A stretch of 15,187 nucleotides of DNA, from the UHGV virus genome UHGV-1764962; one strand, written 5' to 3'. Positions 1,653 to 14,975 of the stretch are shown here, one piece after another. This DNA comes from a virus. Numbering within the stretch: the first letter of the stretch is position 1; each line of letters begins with the position of its first letter. The notes under the pieces were generated by a model. That model did not search any database, had not been told where the DNA came from, and saw only the letters and a program-made list of their open reading frames with translations. Both the position numbers and the translations under genes were made by a program.

Positions 1653-2498
1653 ATGCTGGCTAAAGTCACTTTCCTGAGCTGTATAACGATGAGCGATTTT
1701 ACTTTTTCTGGCTATGAATTGGCCTGCTTTGTAACACACTCCGGTCTATCCCGTAGCGCCGGGCATATCCTGTCGCAATGTGCAAATCTCGCGGCAACAA
1801 CCAGTGAATACTTCATTCACAAGCCTCACCGCCTGATCGCGGCAGAAACTGGTTATAGCCAATCAACCGTCGTTCGTGCATTCCGTGAAGCTGTAAACAA
1901 AGGAATCCTGTCTGTAGAGATTGTTATCGGCGATCACCGTGAACGTCGCGCTAACCTGTACCGGTTTACACCATCCTTTTTGGCCTTCGCACAACAAGCC
2001 AAAAATGCGCTGACTGAAAGCAAATTAAAGATCTCTTCAGCGGCAACCAAGGTTAAAGCTGTTATCGCTAAGTCATTGGCTTTATTTAATTTTATATCCA
2101 CACCCCCATGTCAAAATGATACCCCCTCCCCCTGTCAGGATGACGTGGCAATAAAGAATAAGAAGTCACAAGTTAAAAAAACAAAAAGATCAGTTTCCGG
2201 CGGTGCCGGAACGTCCAGACTCAAAAAATTGACTTCATGGATCGCTGAGGCAAAAGCAAAGGCTGACAATCTGCGGTTATCCCAAAAACGCGCTCAAAAA
2301 CATGAGTTCAAGCAGAAAGTAGAGGCGGCTGCGCGGAAATATGCTTACCTGAAGAACAAGCGTTCGCCTGATATTGGCGGGATATCAAACTTCGATAACC
2401 TACCGCATTGCATGACGGTAAACGAAGCTCTTAATGCGGTTTTAGCCAAAAATAAAGATAACGAACAATGGGGTATACCGGCGGGATTCAGAGGGTGA
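1653..2498 (+). CDS. repL: RepL-like lytic replication initiator, 281 aa
   Basis: Immediately downstream of kilA on the same strand; length matches my recollection of P1 RepL. In P1 the lytic origin oriL lies inside repL (established knowledge, not verifiable here). Start could alternatively be the ATG at 1689. Confidence 0.6.
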   Translation: MLAKVTFLSCITMSDFTFSGYELACFVTHSGLSRSAGHILSQCANLAATTSEYFIHKPHRLIAAETGYSQSTVVRAFREAVNKGILSVEIVIGDHRERRANLYRFTPSFLAFAQQAKNALTESKLKISSAATKVKAVIAKSLALFNFISTPPCQNDTPSPCQDDVAIKNKKSQVKKTKRSVSGGAGTSRLKKLTSWIAEAKAKADNLRLSQKRAQKHEFKQKVEAAARKYAYLKNKRSPDIGGISNFDNLPHCMTVNEALNAVLAKNKDNEQWGIPAGFRG

Positions 2499-2719
2499 TA
2501 GATTGCTCTAATCTGGAGTCACCTGGCGTTTTCAGTATGGATTTTCTTTGGCGCGGTCTGGCCATTAGGGATCATGTTTGCTGCAACGTTTCTTCTGATG
2601 TGGGTATTCACCCTTCCAGGTGATTTCTATAGAAAAAAAGCCAGACATTGATACAATCGCTGCGGGTGCTTGAGGCTATCTGCTTCAGGCATTACCCGAA
2701 AAGCAGATAGAAGAAAGCC

Positions 2720-2783
2720 CCAGATAACATTACGCGTCCTGCAAGACGCTTAACATTAATCTGAGGCCATATCTATGCTTAGC
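2720..2783 (-). ncRNA. Predicted Sok-like antisense RNA (extent approximate)
   Basis: Minus-strand promoter-like elements: -35 TTGACC (reverse complement of 2814-2819) and -10 TAATCT (reverse complement of 2790-2795), 18-bp spacer. A transcript from here would be antisense to the mok start codon at 2775-2777, as Sok is in hok/sok. A 6-bp stem-loop lies at 2735-2750 but no clear U-tract terminator. Confidence 0.3.
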
Positions 2784-2981
2784 ATACGTAGATTAGCCTC
2801 TTACCGACCAAAAGGTCAAGGAGAAGCAGGCTATGAAGCAGCAAAAAGCGATGTTAATCGCTCTGATCGTCATCTGTTTAACCGTCATAGTGACGGCACT
2901 GGTAACGAGAAAAGACCTCTGCGAGGTACGAATCCGAACCGGCCAGACGGAGGTCACTGTCTTCACAGCCTACGAATCTGA
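2775..2981 (+). CDS. mok-like overlapping reading frame (modulator of killing) of the hok locus
   Basis: 68-codon frame starting 58 nt upstream of hok and overlapping it in another frame, ending 7 nt before the hok stop. An in-frame peptide just upstream of the hok ATG (PLTDQKVKEKQA) resembles the MokC N-terminal extension as I recall it. Confidence 0.35.
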   Translation: MLSIRRLASYRPKGQGEAGYEAAKSDVNRSDRHLFNRHSDGTGNEKRPLRGTNPNRPDGGHCLHSLRI

Positions 2982-2988
2982 AAGGTAA
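2833..2988 (+). CDS. hok: Hok/Gef-family type I toxin (small membrane protein), 51 aa
   Basis: ATG at 2833 with SD aaggaga 8 nt upstream; translation MKQQKAMLIALIVICLTVIVTALVTRKDLCEVRIRTGQTEVTVFTAYESER has a single TM helix and the two conserved Cys, and is near-identical to HokD/RelF and HokC/Gef as I recall them. Too short to appear in the ORF track. Confidence 0.8.
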   Translation: MKQQKAMLIALIVICLTVIVTALVTRKDLCEVRIRTGQTEVTVFTAYESER

Positions 2989-2995
2989 GAGACCT

Positions 2996-3015
2996 GGCGG
3001 GGAGAGATCCCCGCC
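2996..3015 (+). other. GC-rich stem-loop with GAGA tetraloop in the hok 3' region
   Basis: 8-bp stem ggcgggga (2996-3003) / tccccgcc (3008-3015) with loop gaga, 8 nt after the hok stop; consistent with a 3' fold-back or stabilising structure. Confidence 0.4.
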
Positions 3016-3062
3016 ACTCTTCGTGTGTCAGGTATCCTCAATGCACCCTTTCCTCTCCAAAT

Positions 3063-3090
3063 AAAAAAGCTCCCGAAGGAGCTTTAAAAT
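3063..3090. terminator. Bidirectional rho-independent terminator between the hok locus and the minus-strand structural operon
   Basis: Hairpin aaagctcc (3066-3073) / ggagcttt (3078-3085) with loop cgaa, flanked by an A-run on one side and ttt on the other; on the minus strand it is followed by a U-run, 20 nt after the end of the 3105-3614 CDS. Confidence 0.55.
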
Positions 3091-3104
3091 ACAAGGGATA
3101 ACTC

Positions 3105-3614
3105 TTAATCCCACTCAATCCAGTTGTAGACGATACGAAGTGACGGGCGCACAGCGGCAGTCACATCTTCGGTACTAAAGTCGATTGCATCACTGTAGAT
3201 TTTGCAGTCCAACATTTCAATTGTTGTAGCAGCTTTTGTCACAGCGTTAACCCCGGAAGATTTGGATTCAGGGGTCGCAGCCATCGTGATATCAACATAG
3301 TCCTTCGCCGCAATGCGATCTTTAATGAACTGAAGAATATCGCCTTCGATAGTCTCCACGCACTGGACCTGGATTTCCCCAGAGTTTCGAATTGGACCGT
3401 GCTGGTTGAACTTCACACCATTCGGACCATAGTCCTCCACATCCTCGCGGGTCATTTCAGGAATTTGCGACGTGCGAACCAGTACGCTGATATCTTCATG
3501 GCCTGCAAAAGTGAGCTGGAATTCAGAAGATACCAGTCGTTCGCCTTTGGCCGCGTTGGCAGTATAGCGGCCCTTAATAAATTTACGGTTTCCCTTAGTG
3601 TTATTGTGCCCCAT
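3105..3614 (-). CDS. Hypothetical phage virion/morphogenesis protein, 169 aa (tail tube candidate)
   Basis: Last gene of the minus-strand operon headed by head and sheath genes; SD aaaagga before the ATG; size in the tail-tube range. No family assigned from sequence alone. Confidence 0.4.
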   Translation of the reverse strand: MGHNNTKGNRKFIKGRYTANAAKGERLVSSEFQLTFAGHEDISVLVRTSQIPEMTREDVEDYGPNGVKFNQHGPIRNSGEIQVQCVETIEGDILQFIKDRIAAKDYVDITMAATPESKSSGVNAVTKAATTIEMLDCKIYSDAIDFSTEDVTAAVRPSLRIVYNWIEWD

Positions 3615-5067: not shown

Positions 5068-6558
5068 TTACTTAATAAGCAGCGGTACGCCCTGGATACG
5101 ACGGGCTACGCCAGTCGGGCAGCAGGCCCAGACTACTTCCCATTTATCGAATTCCGCCTGCGTAACTTTCAGCACATACGGTTCTGTACCGTCAGGGCTA
5201 TGCTTCATCTGGCGGGCTAACTGGACAAAGAAACGGCTGATTGCATTCATCAGGGATGGGACGTGCTGGAAGTGCAGATAGTTATCCTGCGTGCAGCAAG
5301 TTAAAGCATCGTCGATGATCATCTGGCCAGAGGTGCCAACAGATACTTTATTGAGGCGGCCCTTAACCATTGCTTCTTCGTCCGGGGTATCTTCCGGATA
5401 CAGCGGTTGAATTGACGCACGAGCAATGACGGCACGTTCTTCACCAGCCGGTGAGTAATGCCAACCGCCGACATCAGAGTTTTTCTTGACGCCACGAGCT
5501 TTCGCCGCATACGCCGCGCCAGACAGACCGAAGACCACACGGGATTGGGTCCATTTGTCTTTGCAGGAGAACGGGAAGTGATAGACAGCACAGCTTACAT
5601 AATCGGTACCAAGTAAACCGGTATCTTCAACAGCAGAGAGCGCTTCCGTGTACGTCAATGTCGGTTTGACATCAAAGAAGCCATCAATCAGGCGATCAGA
5701 ACAGATATTACCTAACGCGGTGATCGCCGCATTGTCATAGCAACCCAGGCCGAGAACAGCGGTGTACATGTACGGCGCATTGTTCAGCACCTTAACCGCA
5801 CGCAGGTAGGCTTCGGTGGAGATTTTCGACTGATCGCCGTTGGTACCGCCAGTGAACGCCAGTGATTTTTTATTTGTTACTTTCGCGGTCGAAATCAGCT
5901 CTTCATTAACAACCGCGCGCAGATATTTAGAACGGGCTTCCAGAGCCGTAGGCAGATAACACAAGCGGCCCATGTCATCTTTCGCTTCTTCCGCCAAAGA
6001 CACAGTGTGTGTCTCCAGGGTCGTTACCACGCCGAGCGAAGTCGTCTGGGTCAGTTTCAGGAGGAAGCGTTCATTACCTGCGCTGTCCGCTGTTGCCGTT
6101 TCAATGGTTAACTCACGGGTAGGTGAAATACACGGATCACCATCATCAACGTAGATAGCAAAGGCTTCGCCGCTATCAAGTTCAATTTCAGAACCGTATG
6201 GCAACGCACTGTAAGCCGGTTCGCCTGATTCATCGAACATAATAACCGGGAACTTCGCATCATCCGGAACAGCACGGACAACATAACCAGACGTTTGCTG
6301 AATAGCTTCGTATACATGGCGAATTGGTTCGAACTGTGAGCCGGAAGACGGCTTCAGCGGTTCGCCGAGAACATCTTCGTAATTGGACTCAGTAACCGCA
6401 AGAACAGTAAACGGCTTGCCACGCGCAAATACGCCAATACCAGCCCACAAGCTGCTATTTAATGCAACACCTGTAGATAACGTCGCATCGGCATTGATCG
6501 GGCTAACCGCGACGCCGGATGCATTACCTAATGACTGTTGAATTGAATATTGAGACAT
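5068..6558 (-). CDS. Putative contractile tail sheath protein, 496 aa
   Basis: ATG at 6558 with SD agggaaag; sits directly downstream of the head gene, as sheath (gene 22) follows head (gene 23) in the P1 map as I recall it. Assignment by gene order and size, not by search. Confidence 0.5.
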   Translation of the reverse strand: MSQYSIQQSLGNASGVAVSPINADATLSTGVALNSSLWAGIGVFARGKPFTVLAVTESNYEDVLGEPLKPSSGSQFEPIRHVYEAIQQTSGYVVRAVPDDAKFPVIMFDESGEPAYSALPYGSEIELDSGEAFAIYVDDGDPCISPTRELTIETATADSAGNERFLLKLTQTTSLGVVTTLETHTVSLAEEAKDDMGRLCYLPTALEARSKYLRAVVNEELISTAKVTNKKSLAFTGGTNGDQSKISTEAYLRAVKVLNNAPYMYTAVLGLGCYDNAAITALGNICSDRLIDGFFDVKPTLTYTEALSAVEDTGLLGTDYVSCAVYHFPFSCKDKWTQSRVVFGLSGAAYAAKARGVKKNSDVGGWHYSPAGEERAVIARASIQPLYPEDTPDEEAMVKGRLNKVSVGTSGQMIIDDALTCCTQDNYLHFQHVPSLMNAISRFFVQLARQMKHSPDGTEPYVLKVTQAEFDKWEVVWACCPTGVARRIQGVPLLIK

Positions 6559-10779: not shown

Positions 10780-10870
10780 GCTGTATTTTTGAATTTAATT
10801 AAAAATGCTGCATAAAATAATAATGTATGCACAGATGCTTGTACATAGCATTCTCTGCATGTTTGGTTCA
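10780..10870 (-). promoter_or_regulatory. parA promoter/operator region (AT-rich with imperfect palindromes)
   Basis: AT-rich intergenic region directly upstream of parA containing the palindrome atgc-t-gcat (10805-10813) and a recurring tgcat motif. In P1 ParA autoregulates from an inverted-repeat operator here (established knowledge); exact site not resolved. Confidence 0.35.
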
Positions 10871-10902
10871 TTTTGCACGATTGAGAGTTACAAGGAGGGC
10901 AC

Positions 10903-10923
10903 AAAAAAGCCCCGTTCAGGGGC
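10903..10923 (-). terminator. Rho-independent terminator after the T5orf172-like gene
   Basis: Stem gcccc (10909-10913) / ggggc (10919-10923), loop gttca; on the minus strand it is followed by a six-U run (plus-strand aaaaaa 10903-10908), 8 nt after the CDS stop. Confidence 0.6.
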
Positions 10924-10930
10924 ATCAGTG

Positions 10931-11740
10931 TTATTTGCTAAGAGCAGCGAATAATCGTTCGAAATCGATAGTATCTATAGCACGCGTAAGCGCCGGAAGT
11001 TCAGCCTCAAAGTACCCGTGTCGATCGTAAAAGAAGGGACCGAAGAGCGAGGCATGTTGGATTCTACTTCGCCCCAGCCCGGACACACAGTTAAGCCCAT
11101 TACCGGCTAAAAGGCTAAAAAACTTCTCTGGATTATCGTGGTAAAGCTGGGAATCAATGGTGGCGGTTAACTCTTCCATAGGGAAGCACACCCGCCTTGT
11201 CTCCCAGGGATATTTAGTCCGAAGCATAAACATTGCTTTCAGCAATTCACATTGAGCGCGGATCGCGTCCGGTTCATAGCCAGATATGGAGACATAAGCC
11301 ACGTCCCTCATTCCTGCGTCATCTTTGAAAGTCACGATAGAAGTAACATCCAGCTCTTTTTCGAAAGAGCGGGCAGCATCTACTGGACGCTGAAGTAAAT
11401 CATTCGACTTAATGCGCTCGAGAATCCCTCCCCACATCTCATTTAGATATTCGATATGAGCCAAAACCTTATCAAGACACTCTCGTGTAAACCATTCAGT
11501 ATGCCCGCCACCAGCGCTTTTCTCCCACGGCGCATTCCAGGGGAAAAAGGTTGCGTGTAAAGCCCGCTCAAGATTAACTATTGCCAAACGCGTACCACGA
11601 TAGACCCGTGAAAGCGCAAAATCGGGACTCACTTGTAGCCCTTTAAACCGTGCCAATGGACCACATGAAATGCCGATTTTAAAAGTATCTCCGTTCTCCG
11701 GCACCAGAACGTAGAGGTAGTGTTGTTTCTCTTCTTGCAT
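10931..11740 (-). CDS. Hypothetical protein with N-terminal T5orf172/GIY-YIG-like putative nuclease domain, 269 aa (UpfA-position gene)
   Basis: N-terminal ~100 aa carry the T5orf172 pattern: YLYVL ... FKIGIS ... LERALHATF ... GGGHTEWF ... LDKVLAHIEYL. Located between the incA-like iterons and parA. Weak SD. Confidence 0.55.
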   Translation of the reverse strand: MQEEKQHYLYVLVPENGDTFKIGISCGPLARFKGLQVSPDFALSRVYRGTRLAIVNLERALHATFFPWNAPWEKSAGGGHTEWFTRECLDKVLAHIEYLNEMWGGILERIKSNDLLQRPVDAARSFEKELDVTSIVTFKDDAGMRDVAYVSISGYEPDAIRAQCELLKAMFMLRTKYPWETRRVCFPMEELTATIDSQLYHDNPEKFFSLLAGNGLNCVSGLGRSRIQHASLFGPFFYDRHGYFEAELPALTRAIDTIDFERLFAALSK

Positions 11741-11773
11741 ATCAATACCACTGCTTGATGAGAACCGCGCAAA

Positions 11774-12030
11774 TGTTGACTATGCGCGAAAGTTAATGTG
11801 AATAGTTGACTATGCGCGATGTGACTACAGTCAAAAGTTGACTGTAGTCGATTTAACTCCACCAAAGATCGACTATGTAAGATATTGTCGGGAGAAACGT
11901 TGACTATACGCGATGAAATGACCCTAAAAGCCATCTCAATAGCGACTTGCAGAATATTGACGCCAGCAAAAATCCACCAGCGTCAACGAATGTCGCCTAT
12001 AGTCAACTTCTCGCTATCGCATATAGTCAA
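11774..12030. repeat. Downstream iteron array (incA-like copy-control locus), mixed orientation
   Basis: Iteron-like 15-16-mers: gttgactatgcgcga at 11774-11788 and 11804-11818, gttgactgtagtcga at 11836-11850, gttgactatacgcga at 11898-11912 (all inverse orientation relative to the origin iterons); forward copies tcgcctatagtcaac at 11992-12006 and atcgcatatagtcaat at 12015-12030. A perfect 10-bp inverted pair gactacagtc / gactgtagtc lies at 11822-11848. Confidence 0.75.
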
Positions 12031-12032
12031 TA

Positions 12033-12917
12033 TTATGGATTGCGCTTATGGATCTGGAAGCCGATTTTCCTGCCGTTTTTTATCTCTGAAAATTTAAGAT
12101 ATTCAATAGCTTCCAAATCTTTCATGGCTTTTCTGATAACGCTATTTTGCACGCTAACGGATGATTTGAGATTAAGCCTTGCTCTAAGGCGCTCAATGCT
12201 GACAGGTGCCGGGTTGGCGGGTAGAGCCTCAAAGAATGTATACAGTACCTTGGCCGTCTCTTTGCGCCCGAGCTTATCCAGCATCTTCAGCTTCAGGATT
12301 CGCTTATAGTCAACATAGTAAAGTTCAGATAGCTGTTTCTGCGGCTGGATCTCGATAACATCAAGCTCGGTATTCAGGCTGCTATATGCCAACAAGTTGA
12401 CGTTAATGTTATTGAGATGACCTTTTGCCGCCGGGAAGCGGAATTTGACAACTGTCTGCTGAATGCGTGTCAGAGAGTCATCAATACTTTTACGGAACGC
12501 CTTTGAAAGGCGCTTACGTGGATAGCCGCATCGATCGGCAAACTCGGAGAATGGCAGGGTGATTATGCCGTCATCATCAGGTGCGTAGTCAAACAACGCG
12601 GAGGTTATGCCCACCCACACCTTAAAATCAGTATCCATATCCAGGCGTGGGCCATGAATTTCAATTCCCTCATAGCCTTCCTGCTCAACAATTTTAAGGC
12701 TTGATAGTTCTTCGGTTGCGTTCGTTGTGTTTGTAGTAACTGACGATCCGCGACGTAGTGCCACATTGGTAGATTTTAAGGTTGGCACAAACACACCTAA
12801 GCGCAACAAAGCGATAGGTTGTATAGTGCTGTTGTTATTGGGCTTCAGGCTGTGGATTTCTCCTGTATTTCCTGCAACTTCTTCAACGCTAAGGAAGCCT
12901 TTACTTTCTTCCGGCAT
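12033..12917 (-). CDS. repA: Iteron-binding plasmid replication initiator RepA, 294 aa
   Basis: ORF flanked by iteron arrays on both sides; ATG at 12917 with SD ggaga; upstream array overlaps the promoter position, as in autoregulated RepA genes. Confidence 0.8.
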   Translation of the reverse strand: MPEESKGFLSVEEVAGNTGEIHSLKPNNNSTIQPIALLRLGVFVPTLKSTNVALRRGSSVTTNTTNATEELSSLKIVEQEGYEGIEIHGPRLDMDTDFKVWVGITSALFDYAPDDDGIITLPFSEFADRCGYPRKRLSKAFRKSIDDSLTRIQQTVVKFRFPAAKGHLNNINVNLLAYSSLNTELDVIEIQPQKQLSELYYVDYKRILKLKMLDKLGRKETAKVLYTFFEALPANPAPVSIERLRARLNLKSSVSVQNSVIRKAMKDLEAIEYLKFSEIKNGRKIGFQIHKRNP

Positions 12918-12997
12918 CGTGGTTTCTCCATGTGTGGCGCGGCCTGGCGTTAATTTAGATGACTGTTATCAACAGCTGTGAATATTCAGGCTCTAAA

Positions 12998-13098
12998 ATC
13001 GCGTACAGTCAACGTTTCTGTCGCGTATAGTCAACAATAAATCGCGTGCAGTCAACATAAAATCGCACACAGTCAACATAAAATCGCGTATAGTCAAT
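12998..13098 (-). repeat. Origin iterons (incC-like): five direct repeats with about 21-bp periodicity
   Basis: atcgcgtacagtcaac (12998-13013), tcgcgtatagtcaac (13021-13035), atcgcgtgcagtcaac (13041-13056), atcgcacacagtcaac (13062-13077), atcgcgtatagtcaat (13083-13098); centre-to-centre spacing 21-22 bp. Confidence 0.85.
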
Positions 13099-13101
13099 GT
13101 T

Positions 13102-13209
13102 GATCCCGTTTCAGGCCATGAACGGCGCGGCTTACAGCGATCCGGGATCTTCTTTGGATCTTCCTAGGTTCTCTTTGGGATCTGTTTATTGGATCTATGC
13201 TGTGGATAA
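13102..13209. other. Plasmid replication origin core: GATC-rich AT region plus consensus DnaA box
   Basis: Six GATC sites (13102, 13139, 13146, 13157, 13179, 13192), four of them inside repeated GGATCT motifs; perfect DnaA box TGTGGATAA (reverse complement TTATCCACA) at 13201-13209. Organisation matches the DnaA box / GATC heptamer / five-iteron layout known for P1 oriR. Confidence 0.6.
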
Positions 13210-13218
13210 GTTGAATAA

Positions 13219-13241
13219 ACCGGCCAACATAGCCGGTTGGA
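13219..13241 (-). terminator. Terminator-like hairpin downstream of the 130-aa gene
   Basis: Stem aaccggc (13219-13225) / gccggtt (13233-13239), loop caacata; on the minus strand followed by tattcaactt (weak U-run). Confidence 0.35.
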
Positions 13242-13251
13242 AGGAAGGGTA

Positions 13252-13644
13252 TTATTCTACGCTTTCGATAAGAAGACCATGTTCATAACATTTAAGCTCA
13301 TCGCCTTCGTACAGGAATTGGTATCCAATACCACCATATTCAGGCACATTAGGGAATAACTCATCACTTACCGAAGAACAAATCACACCAATGCAGCGAT
13401 CAACGCCTTCTCGTTCTTCAGTGCTGAAAAAATCCTCTTCGGTAAGAACATGAGTACATTGCTCATCAGCATAGGTCGGAAATACATGCTCGATGCAATC
13501 CGGGTGTTTTAAACCAAGCTGATCGGCAAGCTCGAAAGCATGACGGTATTGTTCAGATCCTGGCTTGCCAACAGTGATGTGCTCAATTTTGTAGATTGAA
13601 GTCGCTTTGTTGATAGTTTGCTTTACTGTTACTTTATCAGACAT
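13252..13644 (-). CDS. Hypothetical acidic Cys/His-rich small protein, 130 aa
   Basis: ATG at 13644 with SD aaggga; Asp/Glu-rich with several Cys and His; no recognisable family. Confidence 0.5.
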   Translation of the reverse strand: MSDKVTVKQTINKATSIYKIEHITVGKPGSEQYRHAFELADQLGLKHPDCIEHVFPTYADEQCTHVLTEEDFFSTEEREGVDRCIGVICSSVSDELFPNVPEYGGIGYQFLYEGDELKCYEHGLLIESVE

Positions 13645-13655
13645 AAAAATCCCTT

Positions 13656-13988
13656 TTAGTTACCGCTGATAGCGCGGTTGTAATCATTAACGTTGCGATT
13701 CTTCCTGTTAATCCCCATCAGCATCGTTTCTGTATCAAGGATATAGGCTGGCAGATCATCAAAATATTCACTGCTAAACTCTGGCATCCTGCACATAAAT
13801 GCACTTTTGGGGGCAGGGTGGTTAACCTTTGTCGGCGTCGGCGTTAAATTCGCTGATCGACTGCCGGAGCAACCGCTGAGTGTCAGCAGGAATGCGCTGG
13901 CGAACATTACCCGCCGCAACCAGTTGTTTCTGAACTTCAGCTTTTCGTTCCATTTGCCTGTCAGCATATTTGGCTTGTTCTGATTCAT
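13656..13988 (-). CDS. Outer-membrane lipoprotein, o-spanin (Rz1)-like, 110 aa precursor
   Basis: Signal peptide with lipobox LTLSGC (Cys 40); ATG at 13988 with SD aggaag; the gene starts inside the 3' end of the upstream i-spanin-like gene in another frame and extends beyond it. Confidence 0.5.
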   Translation of the reverse strand: MNQNKPNMLTGKWNEKLKFRNNWLRRVMFASAFLLTLSGCSGSRSANLTPTPTKVNHPAPKSAFMCRMPEFSSEYFDDLPAYILDTETMLMGINRKNRNVNDYNRAISGN

Positions 13989-14244
13989 TTTTCACTTCCT
14001 GGCTGTGAAAATGTTGCTCTGCTTTGTTCATCGTCTCAATGGTCTGGTTAAGATCCATTATTGACTTATCACGTTCCTTAACAGCCTGATCAAGACTGCC
14101 AATTTTCTCCATAGCTTGCTTTAGCTGATGACGTTCCCATGCAAACCCAGCACCAACAAGTGCGCAAATCAGAACAAGAACACCAGTAGCAGCAAGTTTC
14201 TCCTTCAAAGACAAAGCTGTTTTTAACGTAGAAAAGAATGACAT
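13822..14244 (-). CDS. Inner-membrane spanin (Rz)-like protein, about 140 aa
   Basis: Probable start is the ATG at 14242-14244 (MSFFSTLK...) with strong SD aggagg and 5-nt spacer; the ORF-track start at 14271 is TTG. N-terminal TM segment LAATGVLVLICALVGAGFAW followed by a charged, coiled-coil-prone periplasmic domain. Confidence 0.5.
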   Translation of the reverse strand: MSFFSTLKTALSLKEKLAATGVLVLICALVGAGFAWERHQLKQAMEKIGSLDQAVKERDKSIMDLNQTIETMNKAEQHFHSQEVKNESEQAKYADRQMERKAEVQKQLVAAGNVRQRIPADTQRLLRQSISEFNADADKG

Positions 14245-14283
14245 GTCTTCCTCCTGAAGAAAAATTATCAATGAAGTCCTTTG

Positions 14284-14946
14284 TTACTGTGCCGCTTTGT
14301 TTAATTCATCAAGAACAGAATCAGGAACCAAAGCGGCAACTGCGCTGGCTGTGCTGACCTTATTTGCTGATGCTTCCGCAAGCGCGGTACCGATAGCATG
14401 GTTATAAGCAGTTATGGCTACGTTGGCGCTTTCATTCGCTCGTTCATACTGCTGTTGTAACGCAGTTGTGGGCGCTGTTGTCTGGTTGAAAACAACCCCA
14501 AACTGTTCAGTTGCTACTTTCAGAGATTCAATTTGCTCTTCTGTTAGTGCTGGTGGGGGAGTGGCAGTGCCGCCGCCTGAACCAGAGCCTGACGAGCTTC
14601 CTGAGCCAGTGTTAAGGGTCTGGTTAATCTCCCCCATAGCAGCGACTAAACTTGATGTATTAAGCGCGTTAACAGCGTCCTCAAGCGATTTAGTAATATT
14701 CACATCACCAATGGCAATAGAGATCGGCAGTTCTGAAACTTCTCGCTCATTAGCACGGCAGTAAACATCCCAACCAATATCGAGTTGAAGCAGCATTGAC
14801 AGATCTGCATAACCAGCCAACAGGTCCGCGTGCTTAGTTGCCAGTTCTCCAATGTTCGTTAAGCCGGTTGTGGTTGTTCTTATCGTTGAAACATAGCTGG
14901 TAATAGTGTCGGGATAGACAATTGTATCCAGAATTAATCCGGTCAA
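14284..14946 (-). CDS. Hypothetical protein, at least 220 aa, probably the C-terminal portion of a gene interrupted by the IS5-family element
   Basis: Minus-strand frame stays open from 14284 through the IS boundary at 14976 to a stop inside the IS (15019-15021); the ORF-track start is a TTG without SD. Contains a Thr-rich segment and a Gly/Ser linker (TGSGSSSGSGSGGGTATPPP). Confidence 0.4.
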   Translation of the reverse strand: MTGLILDTIVYPDTITSYVSTIRTTTTGLTNIGELATKHADLLAGYADLSMLLQLDIGWDVYCRANEREVSELPISIAIGDVNITKSLEDAVNALNTSSLVAAMGEINQTLNTGSGSSSGSGSGGGTATPPPALTEEQIESLKVATEQFGVVFNQTTAPTTALQQQYERANESANVAITAYNHAIGTALAEASANKVSTASAVAALVPDSVLDELNKAAQ

Positions 14947-14975
14947 TTCTTCTGCAAGCAGTTTTGCTGTGTTAG

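Follow-up and report, generated by a model that had tools for sequence, protein, structure and literature searches.

Genomic setting of the locus

The window, that is, the whole 15,187-nt stretch of the viral genome UHGV-1764962 that was analyzed, carries the C-terminal part of ant, then kilA, repL, a hok cassette and the convergent genes bplB, pmgG, 21, 22 and 23; beyond gene 23 follow parB, parA and a RepFIB/RepB-type replicon. In the reference P1 genome (NC_005856), the same position is occupied by repL-Orlf-rlfA-rlfB-pmgF-bplB, without hok, in agreement with the first-pass annotation, according to which the P1 map does not include this module. Homology to P1 halts at window position 2512, inside the C1 operator Orlf, of which the left 11 nt are kept (2502-2512), and restarts at 3063. 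Therefore, a 550-bp segment (2513-3062, plus strand) substitutes for 1826 bp of P1 (51586-53411), replacing rlfA-rlfB-pmgF with the remnant of an ORF for a small membrane protein and the hok/mok/sok cassette. The window is a variant of a P1-like phage-plasmid and not reference P1.

The cassette as a whole extends over approximately 2630-3049, in the order promoter, tac, Sok target, mok, hok, 3' hairpin and fbi. Its limits were set by the homology to lambdoid prophage hok loci (Rac, 933W/Sp5 hokW and many others), which runs from 2652 to 3048 at 88-91% nucleotide identity. The extent proposed in the first-pass annotation, 2700-3020, is too narrow, given that the promoter, tac (from 2664) and fbi (3029-3049) lie outside it. 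Upstream, the weak terminator-like hairpin at 2608-2623 is the only one between repL and hok. Downstream, between the convergent hok and bplB genes, the terminator scan (minus strand) called a hairpin at 3066-3085 (AAAGCTCC-TTCG-GGAGCTTT), flanked on either side by A/T runs. P1 has this hairpin too; it belongs to the P1 backbone, outside the hok cassette.

A 1001-bp stretch spanning hok (2300-3300) is 100% identical to NZ_CP099352.1, where the gene is hokD (WP_001313475.1). Upstream of window position 1988, the homology to NZ_CP099352.1 is interrupted where that record has IS1 copies.

The hok gene and the overlapping mok frame

The hok toxin gene (2833-2988, plus strand) encodes a 51-aa product, MKQQKAMLIALIVICLTVIVTALVTRKDLCEVRIRTGQTEVTVFTAYESER, and is preceded by the Shine-Dalgarno sequence AAGGAG (2818-2823, plus strand), located 9 nt upstream of the hok ATG. 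The search with Hok-family profiles that the first-pass annotation had suggested as a check gave strong matches: the entire Pfam model PF01848 HOK_GEF aligns with the product (E = 2.4e-22; 78.7 bits, the cut-off being 22), and PHROG 251 matches it as well (E = 4.9e-32). The scores for the NCBIfam Hok subfamily model (49.5 against a cut-off of 73) and the HokA model (38.1 against 89) are both below threshold; they were not counted against membership in the Hok family in view of the strong Pfam and PHROG matches and of the name HokD that PGAP gives to the identical protein. The assignment of a 51-aa Hok-family toxin with a Shine-Dalgarno sequence at this position is thus upheld.

The transmembrane helix and paired cysteines that had been proposed for the product correspond to a hydrophobic stretch at residues 6-24 and to Cys15 and Cys30, which align with Cys16 and Cys31 of R1-type Hok. 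The R1-type comparator, here and below, is the locus of p1658/97 rather than that of R1 itself; the R1-type hok sequence used as a query is 100% identical to many IncF plasmid loci. The proposed near-identity to HokD (RelF) was also found: of the 50 residues compared with HokD of K-12 MG1655, 48 are identical (96%). When the window was compared with MH422554, Rac, 933W and K-12 hokD, most of the substitutions were synonymous in the hok frame (pN/pS ~0.27), and the amino acid changes in Hok were placed in the last 10 residues, with an additional difference at residue 19 in Rac Hok.

The mok reading frame (2775-2981, plus strand; 68 codons, from the ORF list) overlaps hok in another frame, in accordance with the mok-like frame described in the first-pass annotation, and has a Shine-Dalgarno sequence, GAGG (2763-2766, plus strand), 8 nt upstream of its ATG and within the region complementary to Sok. 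The start codon of mok precedes that of hok by 58 nt, an offset equal to that in the R1-type locus (where mok encodes 70 aa) and in Rac. Reading the same nucleotides in the mok frame yields pN/pS >1, with mostly non-synonymous substitutions. Thus, the hok frame is under purifying selection, whereas the mok peptide is not: the mok frame is kept open but its peptide is not conserved. No match for Mok was found in Pfam or NCBIfam, and its match in PHROGs is phrog_37205, a family of unknown function; a named function for Mok is not expected from profile searches because only the frame is conserved. The overlap of the two frames suggests that translation of hok may be coupled to that of mok.

The hok mRNA and its predicted folds

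The promoter scan predicts a weak hok promoter at 2630-2657 (plus strand, 9/12 matches), with the −35 element TAGAAA, a 16-nt spacer and the TG-extended −10 element TACAAT; Rac and 933W have a conserved −10 element, TAGAAT, at the same place. The promoter ends 6 nt upstream of position 2664, where the Rfam model and the 5' end of the R1-type mRNA (GGCGCUUGAGG) both align. With the 5' end placed by homology and the 3' end taken as the end of fbi, the full-length hok mRNA would span 2664-3049 (plus strand, ~386 nt).

Rfam RF01794, named 'sok', matches the leader at 2664-2838 (175 nt, plus strand) end to end, with 114.9 bits against a gathering threshold of 59; the E-value of 4.8e-26 excludes a chance match. 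Since the alignment is to the sense strand, the model, in spite of its name, recognizes the sense-strand leader of the hok mRNA, in which the complement of Sok is included, rather than Sok itself.

The RNA 2664-3052 (389 nt) folds at −157.7 kcal/mol (z = −9.6), with the first 12 nt paired with 3038-3049. The elements involved are tac, at the 5' end of the mRNA (2664-2681, plus strand), and the fold-back inhibition element fbi (3029-3049, plus strand), which is complementary to the 5' end and is identified by the duplex, by the minimum free energy structure and by its invariance in 7 loci. The predicted tac-fbi duplex (2664-2681 with 3029-3049) has an energy of −25.4 kcal/mol, which 0 of 500 shuffled sequences reach. 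In silico removal of the last 30 nt (RNA 2664-3022) causes the 5' end to refold locally, so that tac would pair with fbi in the full-length mRNA and form a local hairpin in the 3'-trimmed one. This refolding of the truncated RNA matches the behaviour of R1 hok mRNA, the 5' end of which is rearranged in response to 3' processing (PMC3827094). Folding of the mRNA ends had been suggested in the first-pass annotation, and both the pairing of the 5' and 3' ends in the minimum free energy structure and the refolding upon 3' truncation emerge as predictions.

The GAGA-loop hairpin that had been noticed at the 3' end is a 9-bp stem-loop at 2995-3016 (plus strand) that appears in the predicted folds of both the full-length and the truncated RNA; the processed, active form of the mRNA is expected to end with it. 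The 3' stem-loop shows compensatory changes across loci (alignment columns 343/352 and 344/351), and three compensatory double substitutions, at columns 21/41, 186/201 and 344/351, are specific to the P1-like lineage and preserve stems of the mRNA. In the consensus fold of 7 hokD-type mRNAs, the pairs 1-12/379-391 are invariant, and fbi is invariant in the 7 hokD-type loci although the flanking 3' sequence diverges. Covariation between tac and fbi is uninformative within the hokD-type clade because all pairs are invariant, so that covariation support for the pairing is confined to what the distant R1 type contributes. In silico, the cognate 5' and 3' ends of the window pair better with each other than in mixtures of window and R1-type ends, and the R1-type ends likewise prefer each other; the two sets of ends are not interchangeable. 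As far as these predictions go, the mRNA has the long-range tac-fbi pairing that is expected of a hok/sok locus.

The predicted Sok antisense RNA and its promoter

On the minus strand, a putative Sok promoter at 2790-2819 consists of the −35 element TTGACC (2819 to 2814), an 18-nt spacer and the −10 element TAATCT (2795 to 2790). The generic sigma-70 promoter scan did not call it because TAATCT scores only 3/6; therefore, the assignment rests on homology with sokW and the R1-type locus. The −10 element aligns with TAACCT, the −10 element of sokW in 933W/Sp5, and mutation of the latter in a promoter-less construct (primer YO-421) resulted in the loss of antitoxin activity (PMC8621323). The RNA encoded by sokW has been detected and acts as an antitoxin (PMC8621323).

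Coordinates carried over from the annotated sokW of phage 933W place the predicted Sok RNA at 2713-2783 on the minus strand (from ~2783 to 2713, ~71 nt). In the predicted fold (−29.1 kcal/mol, z = −4.8), the first 15 nt are an unpaired 5' tail, followed by a long hairpin and a U-rich end; the shape of tail plus hairpin is canonical. The predicted RNA is complementary to the mok Shine-Dalgarno sequence and the mok ATG (2775) and stops short of the hok Shine-Dalgarno sequence. Thus, the antisense promoter that had been described as positioned to cover the mok start finds support in the promoter elements, in the homology with sokW and in the span of the predicted Sok. At the level of sequence, the locus appears to have a cis-encoded antisense Sok with a promoter of its own.

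Comparison with known systems

The nearest relatives of the cassette are the hokD, Rac/Qin-type and hokW-sokW (933W, Sp5) loci, with the 88-91% nucleotide identity over 2652-3048 given above; for hokW-sokW specifically, the identity is 88%. The leader, the Sok region, the 3' hairpin and fbi of the window are the same as in the hokD/hokW-type prophage loci. Residues 1-41 of the window Hok are identical to those of K-12 HokD and HokW (47 of 51 residues are identical to HokW over the whole length), whereas Rac Hok differs at residue 19; the C-terminal tail of the window Hok, TVFTAYESER, differs from the tails in the hokD/hokW lineage. Two further differences concern context and reading frame. The window cassette has repL and bplB of a P1-like plasmid prophage as neighbours, whereas its hokD/hokW relatives reside in integrated lambdoid prophages. 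In 933W, owing to a 1-nt indel at window position 2816, the offset is 57 nt instead of the 58 nt of the window, and mokW thereby extends hokW in frame. The hokW-sokW locus is an experimentally proven type I toxin-antitoxin pair with a membrane-located toxin (PMC8621323). This closest characterized homologue, located in a prophage, aided phage release rather than maintenance, an observation that counts against addiction.

The hok/sok (parB) locus of R1 and IncF plasmids has the same architecture and order of elements as the window, from tac through the Sok target, mok, hok and the 3' hairpin to fbi. The two loci also share an overlap of the Sok promoter with the hok Shine-Dalgarno region and pairing between the 5' and 3' ends of the mRNA. 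The window leader lacks a segment of ~15 nt that is present in the R1 tac hairpin, and the interval between the 3' hairpin and fbi is shorter than in R1. The identity between the window Hok and R1 Hok is only moderate; HokW shares 44% with R1 Hok (PMC8621323).

The phd/doc module of P1 has the same presumed role as the hok cassette, namely, killing of cells that have lost the plasmid prophage, but is unrelated to it in sequence and mechanism. It is a type II system in which the protein antitoxin is degraded by ClpXP, with a delay of hours, compared with the ~30 min within which R1 hok-sok kills plasmid-free segregants (PMC10899753). phd/doc lies outside the window and is present in the relative MH422554, which carries the same hok cassette.

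Distribution and annotation

The repL-hok-bplB arrangement was found in at least 209 PLSDB plasmid records, counted as those that cover 80% or more of a query spanning the end of repL, hok and the end of bplB, compared with only 99 records that have the P1-type rlfA-rlfB-pmgF segment. Thus, among plasmid records matching either query, the hok arrangement is approximately twice as common as that of reference P1. In these records, at least 209 in number, the cassette is held at the same site at no less than 98.5% identity. Related cassettes are present in 4739 of the 5426 complete E. coli genomes, and the phage collection includes 6 P1-like records with the hok-bearing segment.

Annotation of the gene varies. 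In MH422554, the hok ORF is labelled 'MokW', in vB_EcoM-Ro157c2YLVW (MH160767; RefSeq copy NC_050153) it is a 'hypothetical protein', and in phi456, MH445380 and MH445381 no feature is annotated at hok, whereas RefSeq plasmid records (PGAP) name the identical gene hokD. Hence, the term 'unannotated' used in the first-pass annotation holds for some author-submitted phage records and fails for the RefSeq plasmid records. The novelty that it implied is overstated: the arrangement is present in the plasmid records counted above, RefSeq already has hokD there, and the substitution was noted in a P1-like element as an "antibacterial toxin" by Venturini et al. 2019 (PMC6906374). The hok/sok cassette is a known feature that is common in P1-like plasmids and annotated as hokD. 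A literature search for hok in P1-like elements revealed no dedicated study, only the remark in PMC6906374 and the paper on hokW-sokW, and no transcript, toxicity or plasmid-stability data were found for any P1-like copy.

Proposed mechanism and role

We consider it highly probable that the locus is a complete type I hok/mok/sok toxin-antitoxin cassette of the hokD/hokW (prophage) lineage that functions as an addiction system of the plasmid prophage. Every sequence element is present in the window; transcription, processing, toxicity and killing by this copy are what we infer from them. The steps outlined here are modelled on R1 hok/sok, the mechanism of which is summarized in PMC3827094, and on Sp5 hokW-sokW, the observations on the window itself being those of sequence elements alone. 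The weak promoter at 2630-2657 would produce a stable mRNA of ~386 nt in which tac is paired to fbi, so that it would be neither translated nor bound by Sok. Slow trimming from the 3' end to the GAGA hairpin (2995-3016) would free the 5' end, which would refold and open the mok start. As long as the plasmid is present, the short-lived Sok would pair across the mok Shine-Dalgarno sequence and ATG, blocking translation of mok and the coupled translation of hok, and the Sok-mRNA duplex would be marked for RNase III. If the plasmid is lost, Sok would decay first; the stored mRNA would then be available for translation of mok and hok, and the cell would be killed by the 51-aa Hok peptide entering the inner membrane. 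Loss of Sok transcription alone would likewise permit synthesis of Hok and damage to the inner membrane.

Most probably, the role of the cassette is addiction of the plasmid prophage, which would act faster than phd/doc (~30 min vs. hours). In MH422554, which has phd/doc as well, hok would be redundant as an addiction system. A less probable but viable alternative assigns to the same module a mainly lytic role: Sok would be lost at induction, and the membrane damage caused by Hok would advance lysis and raise phage release. Such a role is suggested by Sp5, where, upon induction, sokW RNA vanishes, HokW accumulates in the inner membrane ahead of the appearance of endolysin, and deletion of the hokW-sokW locus halves the phage yield (PMC8621323). 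The location of the cassette is also compatible with it: hok lies directly downstream of, and is co-oriented with, the C1-controlled kilA-repL operon, half of Orlf is kept (2502-2512), and the arrangement occurs in the isolated P1-like phages phi456 and vB_EcoM-Ro157c2YLVW. The gap between repL and hok holds just the weak hairpin at 2608-2623; therefore, induced read-through could run against the Sok promoter. However, P1 already has holin, endolysin and Rz functions, and hok, with a promoter of its own, would not need transcription from upstream; moreover, a lytic role is compatible with addiction rather than exclusive of it, and Hok possibly contributes to lysis on induction alongside addiction. 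A more elaborate version, to which we give a distinctly low probability, has the cassette wired into the lysis-lysogeny switch, providing fast addiction in lysogeny and timed membrane damage in lytic growth. Read-through from the C1-repressed kilA-repL operon, once induced, could collide with the convergent Sok promoter, and 5'-extended hok transcripts unable to form the tac-fbi lock could arise.

Phage exclusion and decay are both less likely than a role in addiction or lysis. Under the former, which we consider very doubtful, the cassette would act by abortive infection: shut-off of host transcription by an invading phage would deplete Sok, and Hok would kill the cell before the invader finishes its cycle. 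A high-copy plasmid with R1 hok-sok lowered T4 plating by 42% and plaque size by ~85%, as cited in PMC8621323, but the reported effect is small, and the copy number at which it was seen is high compared with that of P1-like plasmids, which is low. Furthermore, there are no defence genes adjacent to the cassette in the stretch from kilA to repA, which was compared with annotated relatives, and neither Hok nor the neighbouring small membrane protein matches any PADLOC defence model; therefore, filing the cassette as a catalogued defence system finds no support there. Still less probable is that the cassette is an inactive relic, as is the case for several hok loci on chromosomes. In K-12, hokD is left without mok and sok, and its homology to the window begins at the hok Shine-Dalgarno sequence, the leader being absent; some copies are truncated (H99, and L010, in which homology is lost at the 3' hairpin), and the loop of the 3' hairpin contains the 10-mer reported as the target duplication of IS186B in pSvP1 (PMC6906374). 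In the window, however, all the elements are intact, purifying selection acts on the hok frame, mRNA stems are kept by compensatory changes, and the cassette is conserved in the plasmids counted above (at least 209).

Implications for P1-like elements

The practical value of these observations is mainly in annotation: the 51-aa hok, mok and Sok fall under common ORF-length cut-offs, and hok/mok/sok is missing or mislabelled in several GenBank records of P1-like phages. If the cassette were indeed wired into the lysis-lysogeny switch, the result obtained with hokW-sokW of Sp5 would be extended to phage-plasmids. With addiction as the preferred role, hok would be, in at least one relative (MH422554), a second, faster-acting addiction-type module beside phd/doc. 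No new principle is involved, and the hok cassette may aid the persistence of P1-like elements, some of which carry resistance genes.

Boundaries and leader of the hok-bearing segment

Directly 3' of the repL stop codon, in the 2502-2518 region, the window keeps ATTGCTCTAAT, the 11 nt that form the left part of Orlf (Op55), a C1 operator of P1. It is within this operator that recombination joined the hok-bearing segment to the P1 sequence. ATTGCTCTAAT has a single further match, at 737-747, which differs at one position and lies upstream of kilA, the site of Op53.

At approximately 2525-2537, the window shows a deletion of 143 bp compared to most relatives. The deletion is common to CP099352 and CP089136, the only two single-piece matches among the PLSDB records listed. 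It shortens the ORF of an 81-aa membrane protein with two helices (phrog_3772, function unknown) and shifts its frame. In the other elements, this ORF sits between repL and hok; in the window, only its last 25 codons are left (2574-2651).

Within the hok-bearing segment, the Rfam model RF01794, named 'sok antitoxin', aligned to the sense strand (2664-2838, plus strand), from the 5' end of the hok mRNA to the hok ATG. The length of the model is 157 positions, compared to about 70 nt for Sok. The RF01794 matches represent the hok leader, and the strand given is wrong for the antisense RNA.

A 1-nt indel at position 2816, between the start of mok and the hok Shine-Dalgarno sequence, determines whether mok is out of frame or in frame with hok. 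The offset between mok and hok is 58 nt in the window, in Rac and in the R1 type, compared to 57 nt at the hokW locus of phage 933W (L002, 1622-1834). Thus, in 933W, MokW is HokW with an N-terminal extension, whereas in the window mok is out of frame with hok. The base at 2816 also belongs to the −35 element of the predicted Sok promoter, which reads TTGACC in the window and TTGCCT in 933W.

Remainder of the contig

Homology to reference P1 runs out at 10861, past parA. The stretch that follows (10861-14975) contains a replication gene ORF (12033-12917, 294 aa) whose counterpart in relatives is annotated as 'RepFIB replication protein A / RepB family initiator'; thus, the plasmid replicon of this element differs from that of P1. 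Position 14975 is the last with homology to P1-like relatives, and the final part of the contig (14975-15187) is an IS5-family terminus (GGAAGGTGCGAATAAG...), with 87% identity to the sequence adjoining ISKpn26 in NZ_CP099352.1.

At the opposite end, positions 1-30 consist of CGTGGGCTCGGAGATGTGTATAAGAGACAG, identical to the Illumina Nextera read-2 adapter at its 3' end. The next stretch, 31-131, is also of note, as matches to relatives begin only at position 54 or 132. The start of the contig looks like adapter contamination. The tail sheath gene, gene 22 (5068-6558, minus strand), carries a 99-bp in-frame deletion at 5187-5195, compared to P1 and all relatives analyzed, with the loss of 33 aa near the sheath C-terminus. 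The deletion is flanked by near-repeats, TACCGTC(A/C)G, and could be either a genuine prophage defect or an assembly artefact.

IS186 and the hok 3' hairpin

The sequence GGAGAGATCC, reported as the IS186B target duplication in pSvP1 (PMC6906374), occurs once in the window, at 3001-3010, in the part of the hok 3' hairpin formed by its loop and 3' arm. In the chromosomal hok copy of E. coli LD91-1 (L010), homology is lost at the same hairpin, around position 500, and the sequence past it looks like an IS186 end. The hok 3' hairpin seems to be a hot spot for IS186, and an insertion at this site would cut fbi off from the mRNA.
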